Below, piece by piece: positions 36,613 to 62,888 of a stretch of DNA of 64,000 nt (its first letter is position 1; each line of letters starts with the position of its first letter). This DNA comes from Candidatus Stammera capleta (GTDB lineage: Bacteria > Pseudomonadota > Gammaproteobacteria > Enterobacterales > Enterobacteriaceae): NCBI GenBank assembly GCA_015134395.1, contig CP043983.1:63426-127425 (forward strand). The letters run 5' to 3'. Position numbers and translations under genes: made by a program. Under the pieces are notes generated by a model. It did not search any database, had not been told where the DNA came from, and worked only from the letters and a program-made list of their open reading frames with translations.

Positions 36613-36853
36613 AAATTATTTATTAATATGTAATATAATTATTAAATTAATAAATATATTTATATTTAATTATTTATATTAAAATAAATATATAAATTTA
36701 ATAAATATAATTTATATATTTTAATTTTATTAAATTTAAATAAATTAATAAAAATATAATATTAATATTTTATAAAATTAATTTATATACAATTAATTTA
36801 TATAAATATATTATTAATTAAATATTAAATTATTAATATTTTAATAAATATAA

Positions 36854-37657: not shown

Positions 37658-37998
37658 ACTAAAAATTTAAAATTAATATATTGTTATAAAATAAAAATAA
37701 TAAATATTAAATACTTTTATAATTTTATAATTAAATATAAAAATAATTTAATAAAATTAATAGTTTATTAAATATTTTATTAATAAAATTTATATAATAA
37801 ATTTATATAAATATTAATTATTTATTTATAAAATTAAATTTATATAAAAATTAACAAATAACAAAATTAATTATTTTATAATAACATAATTTTATAATAA
37901 ATAATTATAATATATTATTATTATTAAAATTTTTAAATATAAATATATAATTTAATAAAAATTTTAATAATAAATACTATGATTAACATATTTTTAAA

Positions 37999-38071
37999 AG
38001 CGGAAAACGAGTCTCGAACTCGTGACCTTAACCTTGGCAAGGTTATACTCTACCAACTGAGCTATTTCCGC
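37999..38071 (-). tRNA. glyV: tRNA-Gly (GCC)
   Basis: The reverse complement GCGGAAATAGCTCAGTTGGTAGAGTATAACCTTGCCAAGGTTAAGGTCACGAGTTCGAGACTCGTTTTCCGCT is near-identical to E. coli tRNA-Gly(GCC). No CCA. Confidence 0.95.
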
Positions 38072-38615
38072 AAATTAAATATTTATTACGATAATATTTT
38101 AATTCATATATAGAATTTTTTATATCAAATAAAGAATTATGACAATTTTTTTTGTTTAAATTATTTTTTTTATTAGGAAATCATCTTCTAATTAATTCTT
38201 TTAAAGTACTAACATCTATATTTCTATAATGAAAATAAGATTCTAATTTTGGCATATATTTAAACAAAAATCTTCTATCTTGAAAAATAGTATTTCCACA
38301 CATAGGAGAACAATACTTAGGAACCCATTTTTTTAAAAATAATAAAGTATTAAATTCAGCATATAATTCATTAAAAGTACTTTTTTTAACTTTATCAATT
38401 AACCCATTAAAATTATGTACATTTAAATTTCAATTATTCATTTTATCTAAATATTTATTATTTTGATGTATAACTATACTTGGTCCTATATCTAAAATAT
38501 TTAAATTACTATTAGTAACTATAGTAGAAATTTCAATTATTTTATCTTTATCAGGATTTAATCCTGTCATTTCTAAATCTATTCAAATTAAATTATTACT
38601 ATCATATTTATACAT
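38043..38615 (-). CDS. orn: oligoribonuclease (3' end runs into tRNA-Gly)
   Basis: [21 protein letters not shown].., ..[40 protein letters not shown].. parallel E. coli Orn. After ..YYRNKYLI the frame has no stop until TAA 38043-38045, inside the tRNA. Confidence 0.9.
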
Positions 38616-38629
38616 AAATTATTTAATTT

Positions 38630-38703
38630 CGGTACGAACGGGACTCGAACCCGTGACCTCCAGCGTGACAGGCTGATATTCTAACCAACTGAACTACCGT
38701 ACC
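38630..38703 (-). tRNA. aspT: tRNA-Asp (GUC)
   Basis: The reverse complement GGTACGGTAGTTCAGTTGGTTAGAATATCAGCCTGTCACGCTGGAGGTCACGGGTTCGAGTCCCGTTCGTACCG parallels E. coli tRNA-Asp. Lies 10 nt downstream of 5S. Confidence 0.95.
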
Positions 38704-38713
38704 ATAAATATAA

Positions 38714-38833
38714 TTTCTGGCAGCGTCTTACTCTCGCATAAGAAAATTCTTACACTACCATCAGCGCTATGACATTTCACTTCTGAGTTCGGAATGGATT
38801 CAGGTGGTACTATCATGCTATTACCGCCAGAAA
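38714..38833 (-). rRNA. rrf: 5S ribosomal RNA
   Basis: The reverse complement aligns with E. coli 5S (..CTGGCGG..CCGAACTCAGAAGTGAAA..GATGGTAGTGT..ATGCGAGAGTA..CTGCCAG). Ends are accurate to a few nt. Confidence 0.93.
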
Positions 38834-38841
38834 ATATAAAA

Positions 38842-38856
38842 CATTTTTAGGTTATG

Positions 38857-38864
<8 letters not shown>
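38842..38864 (-). promoter_or_regulatory. 3' arm of 23S processing stem (pairs with 41765-41787)
   Basis: CATTTTTAGGTTATGAAGTTAAG on the + strand at 38842-38864 is the exact reverse complement of 41765-41787, giving a 23/23 match. Confidence 0.8.
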
Positions 38865-41764
<2,900 letters not shown>

Positions 41765-41771
<7 letters not shown>

Positions 41772-41787
41772 TCATAACCTAAAAATG
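41765..41787 (-). promoter_or_regulatory. 5' arm of 23S processing stem (pairs with 38842-38864)
   Basis: CTTAACTTCATAACCTAAAAATG is a perfect 23-nt inverted repeat bracketing the 23S gene. Confidence 0.8.
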
Positions 41788-41814
41788 TCTTATAAAACGA
41801 TTTTTAAAGAATAA

Positions 41815-41886
41815 TGTCCTCTAAGGGATTCGAACCCATATTATCGCCGTGAAAGAGCGATGTCCTAACCCTTAGACGAAGAAGAC
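41815..41886 (-). tRNA. gltU: tRNA-Glu (UUC), 16S-23S spacer tRNA
   Basis: The reverse complement GTCTTCTTCGTCTAAGGGTTAGGACATCGCTCTTTCACGGCGATAATATGGGTTCGAATCCCTTAGAGGACA parallels E. coli tRNA-Glu. No CCA. Confidence 0.95.
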
Positions 41887-41955
41887 TAATATGTATTTAT
41901 TTATTTATATATAATATATATATATATATGACACTTGTATATAATCAAAATTTAA

Positions 41956-43508
<1,553 letters not shown>

Positions 43509-43705
43509 ACAAAACAACAAAAATTCTCAAATAAAAACATTTAAGAATCAAATAATTCTCTTATTAAGATTATTTTACAAGTGCATATATATTATATCTT
43601 TAAAAGAACAAAAACACGTAAAACTTATTAAAATATAGTTTAACAAAAAAAAAAAAATAAAACAAGTATAATATAATAATTTTATATTAATATATATTAA
43701 TATAT

Positions 43706-52795: not shown

Positions 52796-53071
52796 ATGTA
52801 TAAAATATTTTCAATAATATTTTTATTTATTTGTATAATTTTAATAACTATAATAATATCTACACCTAGTAAAAATAATATTATAGGTGCATCTATAAAT
52901 ACAGATAATACAATTATTACATCAAAATTTTTTAAAAATACATTAAATTCAATTATTATAATATTTGCTATATTATTTTATTCAGTAGCATTAATATTAA
53001 ATTTAATACATAATAATAAAATTAATAAATTATATAATCAAAAATATATTAAAATATTTAAAAATAAATAA
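52796..53071 (+). CDS. secG: preprotein translocase subunit SecG
   Basis: 91-aa two-TM protein starting MY... Sits directly upstream of a tRNA-Leu, as with E. coli secG-leuU. Sequence similarity alone is weak. Confidence 0.65.
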   Translation: MYKIFSIIFLFICIILITIIISTPSKNNIIGASINTDNTIITSKFFKNTLNSIIIIFAILFYSVALILNLIHNNKINKLYNQKYIKIFKNK

Positions 53072-53092
53072 ATTTATATTAAACCGAGATGG

Positions 53093-53163
53093 TGAAAAGG
53101 TAAACACGCTACTTTAAGATAGTAGTTTTATTTAAATTGCGGGTTCGAATCCCGCTCTCGGCA
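53093..53163 (+). tRNA. leuU: tRNA-Leu with anticodon AAG (leuU position), long variable arm
   Basis: ACCGAGA TGGTGAAAAGGTAAACAC G CTACT-TTAAGAT-AGTAG TTTTATTTAAATT GCGGG-TTCGAAT-CCCGC TCTCGGC A. The perfect 5-bp anticodon stem fixes the 7-nt loop, so positions 34-36 are AAG. A1 is opposite C72. No CCA. Confidence 0.8.
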
Positions 53164-56574: not shown

Positions 56575-57267
56575 ATGAAAAAAATAGTCTTAATAAGACA
56601 TGGTGAAAGTTTATGAAATAAAAAAAATATATTTACTGGATGAACTGATATAAAATTATCAAAAAAAGGAATAAAAGAAGCAAAAAATGCAGGTATATTA
56701 TTAAAAAAAAACAATTTCATTTTTGATTATGCATATACATCCTTTTTAAAAAGAGCTATACATACTTTATGAAAAATATTATATGCATTAGATTTATCAT
56801 GAATAAATATAACTAAAAGTTGAAAATTAAATGAAAGACATTATGGTAAATTACAAGGTTATAATAAAAATGAAATAAGCAAAATATATGGAAAAAAAAA
56901 AGTACTTGAATGAAGAAGAAGTTATAAAATATCCCCTCCTAAAATAAAAAATAATGATAAAAGATATCCAGGTAATGAAATAAAATATAAAAAATTAAAA
57001 CATAATGAAATACCAATAGGAGAAAGTTTATTAGATACTTTTAATAGAGTAATACCTTATTGAAAAAATAATATAAAAAATAAATTAAAAAAAAAATCTA
57101 CAATAATTATTGTTGCACATGGTAATTCATTAAGAGCTTTAATAAAATATTTAGATAAAATATCAGATAAAAAAATAATTAATTTAAACATACCAACAGG
57201 TATACCTTTAATTTATGAATTTAAAAATAATTTTGATATATATAATAAATATTATATAAAAAAATAA
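56575..57267 (+). CDS. gpmA: 2,3-bisphosphoglycerate-dependent phosphoglycerate mutase
   Basis: [34 protein letters not shown].., ..ERHYG.LQG.., ..[11 protein letters not shown].. are dPGM signatures. 230 aa. Confidence 0.92.
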
Positions 57268-57268
57268 A

Positions 57269-57340
57269 TGGCCCCTATCGGATTCGAACCAATGACCAAG
57301 CGATTATGAGTCGCCTGCTCTACCACTGAGCTAAAGGGCC
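57269..57340 (-). tRNA. ileX: tRNA with CAU anticodon, most similar to lysidine-dependent tRNA-Ile2
   Basis: The reverse complement is GGCCCTTTAGCTCAGTGGTAGAGCAGGCGACTCATAATCGCTTGGTCATTGGTTCGAATCCGATAGGGGCCA. Acceptor and anticodon arm (GGCGA-CTCATAA-TCGCT) match my recollection of E. coli ileX rather than elongator or initiator Met. Confidence 0.75.
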
Positions 57341-57402
57341 AACAATATGGAATTTTAACAAGAAAAATAAATTAATTCAAGTTTATTAAATAAAATAATA
57401 TA

Positions 57403-58179: not shown

Positions 58180-58635
58180 ATGAAAAAATATATTATAAAA
58201 AATAAAAAAGTTTATTATAATTATATAATAAAAAAAAAATTTACAGCTGGAATTTTATTAAAAGGATGAGAAGTTAAATCTATTAAAAAAAAAAATATAA
58301 ATATAGAAAATAGTTATGTTAAAATAGAAAAAAATAATAATATTTATATAATAGGTTTTAAAATAAAACCATTAATTAATAATATTAATATATTTAAAAA
58401 AAAAAATAGAAAAATAAAAATTTTATTAAAAAAAAAAGAAATAAATTATCTTTATAAAAAAAATAAAATTAAAGGATTTACTATAATAGTTATATCATTA
58501 ATATTAAAAAAACCATGATATAAAATAATTATAGGATTATCTAAAGGAAAAAAAAAATATAATAAAAAAAATTTTATATTAAATAAAGAATGAAAAAAAA
58601 AAAAAAATATTAATAAAAATATTGATTTATATTAA
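58180..58635 (+). CDS. smpB: SsrA-binding protein
   Basis: ..FTAGILLKG-W-EVKSIK.., ..RKIKILLKKKEI..L, ..GFTII..SL..K..W.K..IGL.KGKK parallel E. coli SmpB. Adjacent to ssrA. Confidence 0.9.
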
Positions 58636-58673
58636 ATATTAATTTATATTATATAATTAATTTTATTAATTTA

Positions 58674-59021
58674 GGGGCTGTTTGGATTTGACAAAATATA
58701 CAAATTTTAATGAGCATGTCGAGGAAACGGTAGGCCGCGTAAAAAACCGTAAATTAATCGCAAAAAATAATAGTTACGCATTAGCAGCTTAAAAACTGTT
58801 AAGCCATTTTTTATATTTATTTTATCTCTTTATTTATATAAAAAATGTTAATATAAAAGAGATATAATTATAGAAGTCTATATCTATAATAGAAATTTTA
58901 TTAGACTAATTGATTATTATTTTTTTTTATTTATATTAATCAATGAACTAAAAATAAAATAAACATGTAGTATCAAAAAAATACGTTATTTTGGACGCGG
59001 GTTCGAATCCCGCCAGCTCCA
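58674..59021 (+). ncRNA. ssrA: tmRNA (SsrA), tag reading frame 58760-58792 = AKNNSYALAA*
   Basis: 5' GGGGCTGTTTGGATTTGAC... and 3' ..GGACGCGGGTTCGAATCCCGCCAGCTCCA form the tRNA-Ala-like domain. GCAAAAAATAATAGTTACGCATTAGCAGCTTAA parallels the E. coli tag ANDENYALAA. Confidence 0.95.
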
Positions 59022-59028
59022 TATTATT

Positions 59029-59100
59029 AGGTGATTAGCTCAGTGGTAGAGCTTCTCTTTTACAAGGAGAAGGTCAATGGTTCAATTCCATTATCACCTA
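59029..59100 (+). tRNA. tRNA-Val (UAC)
   Basis: AGGTGAT TA GCTCAGTGGTAGAGC T TCTCT-TTTACAA-GGAGA AGGTC AATGG-TTCAATT-CCATT ATCACCT A parallels E. coli tRNA-Val(UAC) with an A1-U72 pair. No CCA. Confidence 0.9.
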
Positions 59101-60465: not shown

Positions 60466-62583
60466 TTATTTATATTTTTTTTTAATACTTAATTTAATTC
60501 TTTTATTATTATCTATATTTAAAACTTTAACATATATATGTTGACCTACTTTAAAATAATCAAAAATATTTTTATTTCTATTTTTTAAATATATTTTTGA
60601 AATATGAACTAATCCTTCTTTATTTTTTAAAAAAGATACAAATAAACCAAAACTTACTATTTTAATAATTTTACCTAAATATACAGAACCTAATCTTATA
60701 TTATTAATAATTTCTTTTATATCATTTACTACATTATTAATATTTTTTTGATTATTAGAAATAATACTAATAAAACCATCATTATTAACTTCTATTAAAC
60801 AATTATTTTTTTCAGTAAGAGATTTAATTACAGAACCCCCTTTACCAATAATATTTTTAATTTTATTAATATTAATTTTAAATTTATATATTTTAGGAGC
60901 ATAAAAAGATAAATATTTATTAGGTTTATTAATAAAACTATTCATTTTATCTAAAATAAAAAATCTTGCATAATTAGATTTCTTTAAAGAAAAAATAACA
61001 TCTTCATATGTTATATTATTAATTTTCATATCCATTTGTAAAGCATTAATACCTTTATAAGTACCAATAATTTTAAAATCCATATCACCTAATCTATCTT
61101 CATCACCAATTATATCTGAAAGTATAATATTTTTATTATTTGTTTTAATTAAACCCATAGCTATTCCAGACACATGATTTTTAATAGGTACTCCTGCATC
61201 CATTAAAGCTAAAGAAGCACCACAAACAGAAGCCATAGAAGAAGAACCATTAGATTCCAAAATATCTGATACTATTCTTAAAGTATAAGGAAATTTTTTA
61301 ATACAAGGTAATATCGGTAAAATACCTTTTTTTGCTAAATATCCATGACCAATTTCTCTACGTTTAGGAATACCAATATTACCAATTTCACCTACAGAAT
61401 ATGGTGGAAAATTATAATGAAAAATAAAATTATCTAAACGCTCTCCTAAAAATACATCATTAAAAATTTGAGCATCTCTTGAAGTACCTAAAGTAACAGT
61501 TACTAAAGCTTGAGTTTCACCTCTAGTAAAAAGAGATGAACCATGAACTCTTTTTGGTAAAAATCCTACTTTAATATCTATATCTCTTATATCATTTTCA
61601 TATCTTCCATCTATTCTTAAATTAAAATCTAATAATTTTTTTATAATTATTTCTTTTTCTAATTTAAATATTTTATTTTTAATTAAATAATTTTTAAATA
61701 TATTTTTTTTATTTAATTCTATAATTAAATTATTTTCAATTAATTTTAAATTATTATTTCTATTTTTTTTATTTAAATTATTAAAATAAATTTCTTTAAT
61801 ATCCTTAATACAATAATTATATATATAATTATTTATATCATCAGAAAAATCTTCATATAAATAATTAAAATTTATATTAGAAAAATTAGAAAAATAAATA
61901 TTTTTATTTTTTTCAGTAAAAATATTAATATTATCTATTATAGATTTAAAATTATCATAAGCAAAATTAATACCATCTATAATAAATCTTTCATGTAAAT
62001 TATTAGAAGAAGAATCAATCATAAATATATAATCTTTTGTTCCAACAACTATTAAATTTAATAAACTTAAATTAATTTCAGATAAACTAGGATTTAATAT
62101 ATAATTATTATTTATATATCCTATACGAGCAACACCTAAAGTTTTAATACCAGGTATACCAGAAATATTTAAAGCAGCAGAAACTGCAATAATAGAAATT
62201 ATATCAGTATTAATTTGTGGATTTACAGAAATAACATTAACAATAATTTGTATATCATTTAAAAAATTTTTCTTAAATAAAGGACGAACAGATCTATCAA
62301 TTAATCTAGATATAATAATTTCTATATCACTAGATCTACCTTCTCTTCTAAAAAAACTACCAGGTATTTTACCAATAGAATAAAATTTTTCTTGATAATT
62401 AACTGTAAGAGGTAAAAATTTTTGATCAAAATTAGGTTCATCATTACATACAATTGTTGCTATTACAACTGTATCATCCATACTAGCTAAAACTGAAGAA
62501 GTAGATTGACGAGCTATAAAACCATTCTCTAATTTAATTATATTTCTACCATATTTAAATTCTAAAACATTATATTCCAACAA
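60466..62583 (-). CDS. pnp: polynucleotide phosphorylase
   Basis: 705 aa. MLEYNVLEFKYGRN..LENG..ARQSTSSVLASMDDT parallels E. coli PNPase. KH and S1 domains at the C-terminus. TTG start, as in E. coli pnp. Confidence 0.96.
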   Translation of the reverse strand: MLEYNVLEFKYGRNIIKLENGFIARQSTSSVLASMDDTVVIATIVCNDEPNFDQKFLPLTVNYQEKFYSIGKIPGSFFRREGRSSDIEIIISRLIDRSVRPLFKKNFLNDIQIIVNVISVNPQINTDIISIIAVSAALNISGIPGIKTLGVARIGYINNNYILNPSLSEINLSLLNLIVVGTKDYIFMIDSSSNNLHERFIIDGINFAYDNFKSIIDNINIFTEKNKNIYFSNFSNINFNYLYEDFSDDINNYIYNYCIKDIKEIYFNNLNKKNRNNNLKLIENNLIIELNKKNIFKNYLIKNKIFKLEKEIIIKKLLDFNLRIDGRYENDIRDIDIKVGFLPKRVHGSSLFTRGETQALVTVTLGTSRDAQIFNDVFLGERLDNFIFHYNFPPYSVGEIGNIGIPKRREIGHGYLAKKGILPILPCIKKFPYTLRIVSDILESNGSSSMASVCGASLALMDAGVPIKNHVSGIAMGLIKTNNKNIILSDIIGDEDRLGDMDFKIIGTYKGINALQMDMKINNITYEDVIFSLKKSNYARFFILDKMNSFINKPNKYLSFYAPKIYKFKININKIKNIIGKGGSVIKSLTEKNNCLIEVNNDGFISIISNNQKNINNVVNDIKEIINNIRLGSVYLGKIIKIVSFGLFVSFLKNKEGLVHISKIYLKNRNKNIFDYFKVGQHIYVKVLNIDNNKRIKLSIKKKYK

Positions 62584-62630
62584 AATAATTTTCCTTGTAT
62601 TTAAAATTAAATTTAAATTAATATAAATAA

Positions 62631-62888
62631 TTAATAACGTAAATTTAAATCTTTTATAATATTATTATATTTATTTAAATCATTTAATTTAATATATTTC
62701 AATATTTTACGACGTTTAAAAATTAATTTTAATAAACCAATTTTACTATGAAAATCTTTTTTAAAATAAGATAAATGTTTCTGTAATTTATTTATACGTA
62801 AACTTAATAATATAACTTGAATTTCACTAGAACCACAATTATTTATATCTTTTTTATAATTATTAATAATTTTTTTATAATTAATCAT
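62631..62888 (-). CDS. rpsO: 30S ribosomal protein S15
   Basis: ..GSSEIQVILLS.RINKLQ.H....KKD.HS..GLL....RRK.L.Y.. is the S15 signature. Upstream of pnp. Confidence 0.92.
   Translation of the reverse strand: MINYKKIINNYKKDINNCGSSEIQVILLSLRINKLQKHLSYFKKDFHSKIGLLKLIFKRRKILKYIKLNDLNKYNNIIKDLNLRY

Follow-up and report, generated by a model that had tools for sequence, protein, structure and literature searches.

The oligoribonuclease gene of Candidatus Stammera runs into a downstream tRNA-Gly gene in a conserved 29-nt overlap

In mitochondria, incomplete stop codons (T or TA) are completed by polyadenylation. Overlaps of protein genes with tRNA genes have been described as well, both in mitochondria (cox1 and tRNA-Lys of Armadillidium vulgare, as cited in PMC8124441) and in bacteria. 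The bacterial example is the overlap of selB with selC, the gene for tRNA-Sec, in Dyella and Luteibacter, in which selB stops only within the tRNA, at nt 46-48, and the C-terminal extension of the protein is translated tRNA sequence, while close relatives stop before the tRNA (PMC8124441, Mukai 2021). In the same, purely bioinformatic study it was proposed that processing of the tRNA gives rise to a non-stop mRNA. How a coding sequence is parted from a tRNA on the same transcript has been described for E. coli secG-leuU, where RNase P cleaves once, at tRNA nt +1, the co-transcript has a half-life of under 30 s, and decay of the freed mRNA then depends on PNPase and PAP I (PMC2241853, Mohanty and Kushner). 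In the reduced genome of the symbiont Blattabacterium 139 gene overlaps have been counted, and Carsonella shows the same trend, with same-strand overlaps arising via stop-codon loss (PMC2768785). Hansen and Moran 2012, writing on symbiont tRNAs, make no mention of overlaps.

Here, we describe an overlap of orn, encoding oligoribonuclease, with a tRNA gene in a window (the whole stretch of DNA that was analysed, 64,000 nt) of Candidatus Stammera capleta. The genome from which the window is taken is about 281 kb in size, has 18% GC and uses genetic code 4. On the minus strand, the 3' end of orn reads ...GAA TTA AAA TAT TAT CGT AAT AAA TAT TTA ATT TGC GGA AAT AGC TCA GTT GGT AGA GTA TAA, and the frame contains no stop ahead of the gene for tRNA-Gly(GCC); its first stop is a TAA inside this tRNA, on the same strand (Table 1). 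An initial annotation of the window had already pointed this out, and the minus-strand sequence and the placement of the tRNA by ARAGORN and Rfam agree with it. Both programs set the tRNA at 37999-38071, which also confirms the proposed first tRNA nucleotide, the G of the TGC codon (38071), and the location of the TAA in the anticodon stem and the resulting nine-residue tail CGNSSVGRV were likewise borne out by the sequence and an alignment with E. coli Orn. Judged from such comparisons, residues 182-190 are a true extension, since the E. coli Orn alignment reaches no further than residue 180-181 and the match to the NCBIfam model of Orn stops at residue 182. AlphaFold2 assigned residues 183-190 a pLDDT below 50 and no secondary structure, and in this model the tail looks disordered after the last helix, and harmless. 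C-terminal extensions of similar length are present in natural Orn homologues (e.g. 2gbz, 194 aa). A second in-frame stop for the orn frame lies at tRNA nt 42-44. A long ORF enters only one of the nine tRNA/tmRNA genes of the window, tRNA-Gly, where the open frame spans 182 codons compared to at most 47 for all other gene/phase combinations.

Table 1. Positions in the window of the orn/tRNA-Gly locus, its neighbours and genes for RNA processing and ribosome rescue
Feature	Position	Strand	Basis or remark
tRNA-Gly(GCC), 73 nt, CCA not encoded	37999..38071	-	ARAGORN; Rfam, 68.5 bits
orn (oligoribonuclease) CDS	38043..38615	-	Code 4: ATG 38615-38613, 190 codons, TAA 38045-38043
orn/tRNA-Gly overlap, 29 nt	38043..38071	-	TAA 38045-38043 = tRNA nt 27-29, 5' strand of the anticodon stem
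Tail codons TGC GGA AAT AGC TCA GTT GGT AGA GTA (CGNSSVGRV)	38046..38072	-	Past the natural Orn C-terminus; only the first T lies outside the tRNA gene
Spacer from tRNA-Asp 3' end to orn ATG, 14 nt	38616..38629	-	No room for a promoter
tRNA-Asp(GUC), directly upstream of orn	38630..38703	-	ARAGORN, Rfam
rRNA operon 16S - tRNA-Glu - 23S - 5S	38715..43510	-	Rfam, tRNA-Glu call; orn and tRNA-Gly at its tail
secG, 11-nt spacer, then tRNA-Leu	52796..53163	+	SecG TIGR00810, tRNA-Leu call, sequence
smpB (SsrA-binding protein)	58180..58635	+	NCBIfam NF003843, E = 1.4e-36, 125.5 bits, just below the cutoff of 130
tmRNA (ssrA), tag AKNNSYALAA	58674..59021	+	ARAGORN; Rfam RF00023, 142.5 bits
pnp (PNPase), stop-to-stop ORF	60466..62661	-	NCBIfam TIGR03591, 811 bits

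Translated with table 11, the orn ORF is broken by three TGA codons, a point missing from the initial annotation. In the alignment, these codons fall at Trp columns (W11, W62 and W145) that are invariant among Orn homologues. When code 4 (TGA = Trp) was applied, orn became one uninterrupted ORF of 190 codons, and the ORF content of the window rose from 15.3k aa to 23.1k aa. Annotation pipelines that use table 11, or that ban CDS/tRNA overlaps, would call the gene a pseudogene or shorten it. Orn is an exonuclease that degrades very short RNAs, including dinucleotides. The window protein aligns with residues 5-180 of the 181 of E. coli Orn, scores 262.7 bits against the curated Orn equivalog NF003765 of NCBIfam (cutoff 106; residues 5-182 covered) and matches Orn chains in the PDB down to E = 1e-67. 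A protein identical to it (P0001) is on record from an NCBI contig of 281,294 bp. The catalytic DEDDh residues (D13, E15, D113, H159 and D164) show no variation among the 12 Stammera-type sequences or across a 28-sequence alignment, and dN/dS amounts to 0.22-0.39 within the clade that carries the overlap, versus 0.27 for one pair without it. These two results indicate, at the level of sequence, that orn is still under constraint and functional. Under code 4 the ORF is intact in 12 of 12 genomes.

The tRNA gene appears to be equally well preserved. The cloverleaf of tRNA-Gly is 100% paired in 13 sequences (231/231 stem cells), with compensatory changes at four pairs, 5-68, 27-43, 28-42 and 52-62, among them the two (27-43 and 28-42) that create the TAA. 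The acceptor pairs G1-C72, C2-G71 and G3-C70, as well as T73 (U73), are invariant. We take these acceptor-stem pairs and U73 to be identity elements for GlyRS. By these comparisons tRNA-Gly(GCC) is intact, and selection has kept its cloverleaf canonical. All eight genomes with the overlap have the TAA at nt 27-29, as do three of five others, and we considered its retention as a sign of selection; this was rejected, as the difference falls short of significance (hypergeometric probability about 0.13) and the genomes do not represent independent lineages.

The overlap was compared over 12 related genomes of 281-326 kb. In eight of these orn overlaps tRNA-Gly by 29 nt, identical in position and phase, and in the other four it has its own stop. 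Seven independently assembled genomes (L081, L083, L084, L085, L086, L087 and L090) thus share the overlap with the window, although the identity between the Orn of the window and that of the other genomes is only 64-68%. The adjacency of orn and tRNA-Gly is ancestral synteny, common to E. coli and Shewanella. The spacer between the two genes measures 210 nt in E. coli and shortens to 61, 32 and then 18 nt from one basal lineage to the next. In a neighbour-joining tree of 2523 ungapped columns of 23S, 5S and tRNA-Asp, with E. coli as outgroup, the clade with the overlap received 93% bootstrap support. The overlap is kept in eight of the nine descendants of one ancestor, and the single reversal, L088, carries one more homopolymer nucleotide than its sister L086 (99% support). 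Including L088, there are four lineages with a separate stop, and their spacers range from 5 to 61 nt. On this tree the overlap arose once, after stepwise shrinkage of the spacer, and it is real and inherited across the clade. Among the genomes that carry it, the overlapped 28 nt show only two substitutions, T17A and A26G, both synonymous in the orn frame. The comparison with related genomes, which the initial annotation had suggested, therefore turned out in its favour: the ancestral adjacency of orn and glyV and the collapse of the spacer to a negative length are well supported by the series of spacers, and the sequencing correction that it had named as a possible refutation is excluded by the agreement of eight genomes. 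Of note, a contig search with Orn, used for background only, matched solely free-living Methylococcales, Shewanella and similar bacteria, probably because genomes with code 4 obtain low tblastn scores and a good number of them do not pass GTDB quality control.

At the tail of the rRNA operon, orn is directly flanked by tRNA genes, 14 nt upstream and -29 nt downstream. The spacers are short in the relatives too, with 14-35 nt between tRNA-Asp and orn in 10 of 12 genomes. Nine genomes have retained tsaE, which follows tRNA-Gly after 12-18 nt in eight of them and after 30 nt in L089. A motif scan found no promoter-like sites on the minus strand from 5S to the orn ATG, and no coding-strand promoter- or terminator-like sites flanking orn, a scan that is nearly uninformative at 18% GC. 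Since these spacers leave no space for promoters or terminators, orn, tRNA-Asp and tRNA-Gly are likely co-transcribed as a tRNA-punctuated unit at the tail of the rRNA operon. The likeness to mitochondrial tRNA punctuation, which had been noted before, is thus stronger than was stated, considering the tRNA-Asp ~14 nt upstream, the position at the rRNA operon tail, and the tsaE gene 12-18 nt after tRNA-Gly in most relatives.

The overlap is probably a heritable by-product of deletional compaction and not a dedicated regulatory device, with tailed Orn being made from uncut transcripts and RNase P turning the others into non-stop mRNA. Deletions would have taken away the stop of orn together with the entire spacer, so that the frame would run on to the first downstream in-frame stop, the TAA formed by tRNA nt 27-29. 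This TAA presumably exists because AT drift turned the anticodon-stem pairs C27-G43 and G28-C42, as found in E. coli, into U27-A43 and A28-U42. Most likely, orn is expressed from a long rRNA-operon co-transcript, because it sits between tRNA-Asp and tRNA-Gly at the operon tail. Ribosomes that translate this co-transcript before processing would produce active Orn with the disordered nine-residue tail, and an RNase P cut at tRNA nt +1 would free tRNA-Gly and leave an orn 3' end without a stop. The stop-less fragment would be degraded by exonucleases such as PNPase, which is a candidate both for the 3' exonuclease and for the tailing enzyme acting on cleaved orn mRNA, and ribosomes stalled on it would be rescued by tmRNA-SmpB. 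The tmRNA and SmpB that had been placed at 58180-59021 were recovered with ARAGORN, Rfam and NCBIfam. This system is retained almost universally in bacteria, so its presence lends only non-specific support. The two fates of the transcript, cut by RNase P to a non-stop mRNA for tmRNA or left uncut to yield Orn with nine extra residues, seem reasonable, since they match the model for selB-selC (PMC8124441) and the separation of secG-leuU by RNase P (PMC2241853). The initial annotation went too far in assuming that an uncut, translated copy yields no tRNA, as a molecule may first be translated and then processed by RNase P. If the cut were as fast as in E. coli secG-leuU, most orn mRNA would be stop-less and the tagged Orn destroyed, which sits awkwardly with this reading because orn is conserved under purifying selection. 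The overlap would be tolerated as neutral or slightly costly.

It is unlikely that the overlap is instead a selected regulatory coupling, in which each transcript would serve for either tRNA-Gly or full-length Orn but not for both, and RNase P would hold Orn synthesis down despite very strong transcription of the rRNA operon, much as the homeostasis model proposes for selB-selC. Behind an rRNA operon orn would otherwise be over-expressed, the same logic has been proposed for selB-selC (PMC8124441), and the overlap has survived in nearly all descendants through substantial divergence. The only substitutions within it are silent in the orn frame, but with no more than two such changes this means little. 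Moreover, the four lineages with a separate stop, the reversal included, do well, the second in-frame stop means that the exact TAA is not critical, and the stepwise shrinkage of the spacer fits passive deletion bias. We know of no functional link between Orn and tRNA-Gly, let alone one that calls for balanced levels.

Equally doubtful is the idea that tRNA-Gly is transcribed separately, from a promoter inside the 3' part of orn, with the orn mRNA forming another, rarely processed population. There would then be little competition between the two products and little non-stop mRNA. AT-rich DNA is rich in promoter-like hexamers, and one weak minus-strand promoter match was found within orn (38536-38508). 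However, the region contains 12 promoter-like matches compared to 14.8 +/- 3.7 in shuffled sequence, and the coding strand has no match immediately ahead of the tRNA. Furthermore, any orn transcript that reaches its stop contains at least tRNA nt 1-29, and if no terminator intervenes the whole tRNA is part of it, which would make it an RNase P substrate anyway.

A third possibility, of comparably low probability, is stop completion in the manner of mitochondria. In this case RNase P would leave an mRNA ending in ...AUU U-3', which A-tailing by poly(A) polymerase I or PNPase would turn into UAA, resulting in Orn of natural length (...NKYLI) without a tail and with no need for ribosome rescue. 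In all eight genomes with the overlap the phase is T|GC, which puts a U at codon position 1 directly in front of the tRNA. The same phase is needed to reach the TAA at tRNA nt 27-29, which makes it non-discriminating, and it also follows from a single origin combined with selection against frameshifts. In addition, 11 of 12 genomes have a T at position -1, as expected at 18% GC; among the four without the overlap only L089, with a G, departs from this. The minimal spacing of orn between tRNAs resembles tRNA-punctuated mitochondrial transcripts, PNPase is encoded in the window, and non-templated A residues were present on about 24% of the clones derived from E. coli secG-leuU, whose released mRNA depends for its decay on PAP I and PNPase (PMC2241853), but bacterial A-tails mark RNA for decay and not for translation. 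Our literature searches turned up no case of stop completion by tailing in bacteria. The fuller version, in which the rRNA operon tail of Stammera is expressed by true tRNA punctuation and the UAA of orn is made post-transcriptionally by A-tailing, is slightly less probable still. If true, it would be the first mitochondrial-style stop-codon completion in a bacterium, and in a free-standing (extracellular) one with a genome that converges on organelle architecture. Programmed frameshifting onto hidden out-of-frame TAAs was also considered and set aside as unnecessary, as AT-rich DNA is expected to contain such TAAs; a conserved slippery site followed by a structure was not evident. Finally, an artefact or a dying pseudogene is effectively refuted by the comparative data, for although AT-rich, homopolymer-rich sequence is prone to indel errors and L088 differs from L086 by a single homopolymer nucleotide, eight independently assembled genomes agree on the identical overlap, which rejects a sequencing error, and the ORF is intact under code 4 in every genome, with its active site preserved, purifying selection persisting and an NCBIfam score far over the cutoff, which rejects decay.

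What makes the locus a natural test case is that an essential-type housekeeping mRNA and an elongator tRNA come from the same 29 nt, so that translation termination stands in conflict with RNase P processing in a bacterium whose RNA-processing equipment is minimal. The spacers in this one symbiont clade, going from 210 nt through 61, 32 and 18 nt to -29 nt, form a time series of organelle-like compaction, in which the overlapped state persists through long divergence. Public Stammera RNA-seq data, which cover one of these symbionts (PRJNA1199456, PMC12905250; dual RNA-seq, PMC13538373), make non-stop mRNA, tailed protein and A-completed stops testable.

Similar cases exist, and the orn locus shares features with each of them. 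As in selB-selC, an ORF runs into a tRNA on the same strand and stops inside it, the overlap is conserved at the same position and yet dispensable, as some relatives have a separate stop, and the description is based on bioinformatics. In contrast, the selB-selC partners are functionally linked, SelB binding Sec-tRNA-Sec, and they reside in large genomes where a regulatory role has been argued, whereas orn and tRNA-Gly are unrelated housekeeping partners lacking such a protein-tRNA link, in a genome of about 0.28 Mb with code 4, stepwise loss of the spacer and a location at the rRNA operon tail. With mitochondria the region has in common an mRNA flanked by tRNAs almost without spacers, a compact AT-rich genome and TGA read as Trp, and the T in codon position 1 before the tRNA is one that A-tailing could in principle extend to UAA. 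In contrast to mitochondria, the orn frame finds a complete TAA inside the tRNA, and Stammera presumably has a standard RNase P, tmRNA-SmpB rescue and tails that promote decay; in the window, one of nine RNA genes is overlapped, compared to widespread overlaps in such mitochondrial genomes. E. coli secG-leuU likewise consists of a coding sequence followed by a same-strand tRNA with no intervening promoter, but secG has retained a stop, located 14 nt ahead of the tRNA, and the RNase P cut there gives no non-stop message, whereas orn has none ahead of the tRNA and would be cleaved 27 nt before its stop codon begins. The ordinary counterpart is present in the window itself, as its secG has its own stop just before the same-strand tRNA-Leu. 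Like the overlaps of Blattabacterium and Carsonella, the orn overlap combines deletion bias with a lost stop that extends an ORF into the downstream gene and is tolerated in a compact genome, and genome reduction most likely brought it about as a tolerated side effect. The overlaps reported for these symbionts join one coding sequence to another, whereas orn runs into the gene for a structured RNA, which has to be excised from the shared transcript.

The 3' end of orn, on the minus strand, reads ...TAT TAT CGT AAT AAA TAT TTA ATT TGC GGA AAT AGC TCA GTT GGT AGA GTA TAA. The first nucleotide of tRNA-Gly(GCC) is the G of the TGC codon (38071), and the TAA (38045-38043) corresponds to tRNA nucleotides 27-29 in the 5' strand of the anticodon stem. 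The missing stop before the tRNA, the tRNA start within TGC and the TAA in the anticodon stem, all proposed in the initial annotation, were thus confirmed by the sequence, ARAGORN and Rfam. In the standard bacterial code, three TGA codons interrupt the orn frame. These codons align with invariant tryptophan columns of Orn (W11, W62 and W145), and reading the window with code 4 (TGA as Trp) raises its ORF content from 15.3k to 23.1k amino acids, so that the organism reads TGA as tryptophan and orn forms one ORF. The alignment with E. coli Orn spans residues 5-180 of 181, and the match to the NCBIfam Orn model covers residues 5-182 (262.7 bits). Both end before the nine-residue tail CGNSSVGRV that the initial annotation had recognised, and this tail is predicted to be a genuine Orn extension encoded by the tRNA gene. 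Of the tRNA and tmRNA genes in the window, nine in all, only tRNA-Gly is entered by a long ORF.

The window has a GC content of 18.2%, preserves the Enterobacterales order orn, tRNA-Gly, amiB and miaA seen in E. coli, and keeps envelope genes. An identical Orn is encoded on a 281,294-bp NCBI contig, and its nearest relatives lie on contigs that are complete and measure 291-326 kb (CP144790, CP144796, CP144802, CP144805, CP144828, CP144833, CP144834, CP144853, CP144859, CP145602 and CP043993). Candidatus Stammera capleta is an extracellular, pectinolytic symbiont of tortoise beetles, and this species is the sole described Enterobacterales-type insect symbiont with code 4, this GC range and retained envelope genes (PMC13462651; bioRxiv 10.1101/2023.12.12.571295). 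From these three properties we infer that the compared genomes are Ca. Stammera capleta.

Eight of the 12 genomes (the window, L081, L083, L084, L085, L086, L087 and L090) carry the identical overlap of 29 nt, without a stop before the tRNA and in the phase T|GC GGA AAT AGC TCA GTT GGT AGA GTR TAA, while the Orn bodies of the other overlap genomes are only 64-68% identical to that of the window. In the remaining four, orn has its own stop (see table). A neighbour-joining tree of the 23S/5S/tRNA-Asp flank (2523 ungapped columns, E. coli outgroup) places L082, L089 and L091 as successive branches at the base and all overlap genomes in one clade (bootstrap 93%). L088 lies inside this clade as sister of L086 (99% support); a single additional homopolymer nucleotide, absent from L086, brings a hidden TAA into frame. 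This 1-nt length change is located in a T/A homopolymer tract (L088:3520-3560 versus L086:3520-3560), with the in-frame TAA 5 nt before tRNA-Gly. L088 has naturally reverted from the overlap, and a sequencing error in the homopolymer would be a less likely explanation for an Illumina assembly. E. coli has 210 nt between the two genes, and the free-living Shewanella, Psychromonas and Aeromonadaceae have no less than about 115 nt. The simplest history is a stepwise loss, from 210 nt to 61, 32 and 18 nt in the basal Stammera lineages, followed by an overlap that was gained once and lost once, and the collapse of the ancestral spacer to a negative length, as originally suggested, is borne out by these distances.

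Features of the window, and related orn loci with a separate stop
Feature	Position	Strand	Detail
orn	38615-38043	minus	single 190-codon ORF, code 4
tRNA-Gly(GCC)	37999-38071	minus	ARAGORN and Rfam in agreement
rRNA operon, tRNA-Asp and spacer up to orn	38616-43510	minus	rRNA operon tail
tsaE loss site	37658-37998	minus	
tsaE/mutL loss, second stretch	36616-36853	minus	
tRNA-Leu	53083-53163	plus	downstream of secG
SmpB	58180-58635	plus	
gpmA/tRNA-Met	57267-57341		extreme RNA-gene packing
tmRNA/tRNA-Val	59021-59029		extreme RNA-gene packing
L082 orn			own stop TAA, spacer to tRNA-Gly 61 nt
L089 orn			own stop TAG, spacer about 32 nt
L091 orn			own stop TAG, spacer 18 nt
L088 orn			own stop TAA, spacer 5 nt

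Sequence constraint indicates that both orn and tRNA-Gly remain functional. The dN/dS of orn is 0.22-0.39 for close pairs within the overlap clade, similar to the 0.27 of a non-overlap pair, and none of the 12 genomes departs from the DEDDh catalytic residues. In the 12 symbiont tRNA-Gly sequences and E. coli glyV, all 231 stem cells of the cloverleaf are paired, with compensatory changes at four pairs. The pairs that form the stop are C27-G43 and G28-C42 in E. coli versus U27-A43 and A28-U42 in the symbionts, except that L091, sister to the overlap clade, retains C27-G43. The TAA thus arose through AT drift in a stem, and the orn frame now makes use of it. A second in-frame stop, TAA or TAG, is present at tRNA nucleotides 42-44. 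In the alignment of these tRNAs, the overlap genomes differ within the shared 28 nt at just two sites, T17A and A26G, both synonymous in the orn frame, and A7G (Asn to Ser if in the orn frame) is confined to L088, where the overlap is lost; with so few events, this pattern carries little weight. The AlphaFold2 model of Orn has a confident core (mean pLDDT 88.4), a final helix ending at residue 180 and unstructured residues 183-190 (pLDDT below 50). Since the modelled tail is disordered and certain natural Orn homologues are extended at the C-terminus by a similar length, the nine residues should be tolerated.

The minus-strand order is 16S, tRNA-Glu, 23S, 5S, tRNA-Asp, a 14-nt spacer, orn and the overlapping tRNA-Gly. 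The spacer between tRNA-Asp and orn is 14-35 nt in 10 of the 12 genomes, and tsaE starts 12-18 nt past tRNA-Gly in eight of the nine tsaE-bearing genomes (30 nt in L089). Neither tRNA-Asp nor tRNA-Gly encodes CCA. This organization implies a putative long co-transcript punctuated by tRNAs, which would comprise rrn, tRNA-Asp, orn, tRNA-Gly, tsaE, amiB, mutL and miaA. That orn and tRNA-Gly have separate promoters is unlikely: a promoter and terminator motif scan of the coding strand flanking orn found none, although such a scan weighs little at 18% GC. The 14 nt behind tRNA-Asp are too short to hold a separate orn promoter. In the window genome tsaE is absent between tRNA-Gly and amiB, where 341 nt of AT-rich sequence without an open frame remains. 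L081 and L084 lack tsaE too, whereas the other nine genomes have it. Since amiB is directly followed by miaA, mutL is absent from the window genome as well, which points to the loss of t6A-synthesis and mismatch-repair genes in particular lineages.

The account we consider most probable, with reasonable though far from full confidence, is a passive dual use of the overlap. Ribosomes that finish before processing would stop at the TAA within the tRNA and release Orn with the nine-residue tail. An RNase P cut would free tRNA-Gly and leave a stop-less orn mRNA, which could be trimmed by exonucleases such as PNPase (encoded in the window), and stalled ribosomes could be rescued by tmRNA-SmpB. The presence of both tmRNA and SmpB in the window, as first annotated, is supported by ARAGORN, Rfam and NCBIfam matches. 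In E. coli, a single RNase P cut at tRNA nucleotide +1 separates the parts of the secG-leuU co-transcript, which has a half-life under 30 s, and the freed secG mRNA decays fast, dependent on PNPase and PAP I (PMC2241853). The same secG-tRNA-Leu pair occurs in the window with a spacer of 11 nt. The initial view that an uncut, translated transcript yields no tRNA was too strict, since translation followed by processing of the same molecule is compatible with the arrangement, and tRNA-Gly could still be obtained from it. Both fates proposed in the initial annotation, a cut that leaves a non-stop message and read-through into the tail, are nevertheless plausible. Mitochondria-like stop completion, in which the cut leaves ...AUU U and A-tailing makes UAA, fits the conserved T|GC phase, but this phase is equally needed to reach the TAA in the tRNA, and with T at -1 in 11 of the 12 genomes (G in L089) the sequence does not discriminate; we regard it as improbable. 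Selected regulatory coupling, modelled on selB-selC homeostasis (PMC8124441), has a similarly small chance, as Orn is not known to be functionally connected with tRNA-Gly, and overlap-free lineages survive. Loss of the spacer in steps, the L088 reversal and the normal stops of four lineages speak for an overlap that is tolerated, not selected. An artefact or pseudogene is highly implausible and refuted by the comparative data: the agreement of eight genomes excludes both a sequencing error as the cause and the correction restoring an upstream stop that the initial annotation had considered.

The tRNA-Leu downstream of secG has the anticodon AAG (A34; loop TTAAGAT), and its acceptor stem (ACCGAGA...TCTCGGC-A) seems to begin with an A1-C72 mismatch. 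With the exception of tRNA-Arg(ACG), bacterial tRNAs are not known to carry A34 often, so that it becomes a question how this genome decodes CUN codons. The gpmA stop (57267, plus strand) abuts the opposite-strand tRNA-Met with a spacer of 0-1 nt, and only 6-7 nt separate the tmRNA 3' end from tRNA-Val. SmpB is divergent and Lys/Asn-rich, and scores 125.5 bits, slightly under the NCBIfam curated cutoff of 130, so that automatic annotation might leave the protein unnamed.

In the literature, of which our coverage is incomplete, we found no report of an orn/tRNA-Gly overlap, nor any of bacterial symbionts with tRNA punctuation. In reduced symbiont genomes, loss of a stop commonly gives rise to same-strand overlaps (PMC2768785), and arrangements of the present kind have been described before. 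In the work of Mukai (2021), selB ORFs contain or enter the tRNA-Sec gene on the same strand; the selB stop of Dyella and Luteibacter is located inside the tRNA at nucleotides 46-48, whereas close relatives stop before the tRNA, and processing was proposed to make non-stop mRNA (PMC8124441). That study also cites mitochondrial tRNAs embedded in protein genes. The orn/tRNA-Gly overlap is of the same kind as selB-selC, with a stop inside a same-strand tRNA and relatives with a separate stop. What is new is the pairing of a housekeeping exonuclease gene with that of an elongator tRNA, the setting at the rRNA operon tail of a ~0.28 Mb code-4 genome with tRNAs flanking both sides, and the clear phylogenetic series of spacer collapse. 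To a specialist this would be neat rather than startling, but it sets translation termination against tRNA processing in a bacterium, a conflict that is directly testable with existing public RNA-seq (PMC12905250, PMC13538373).
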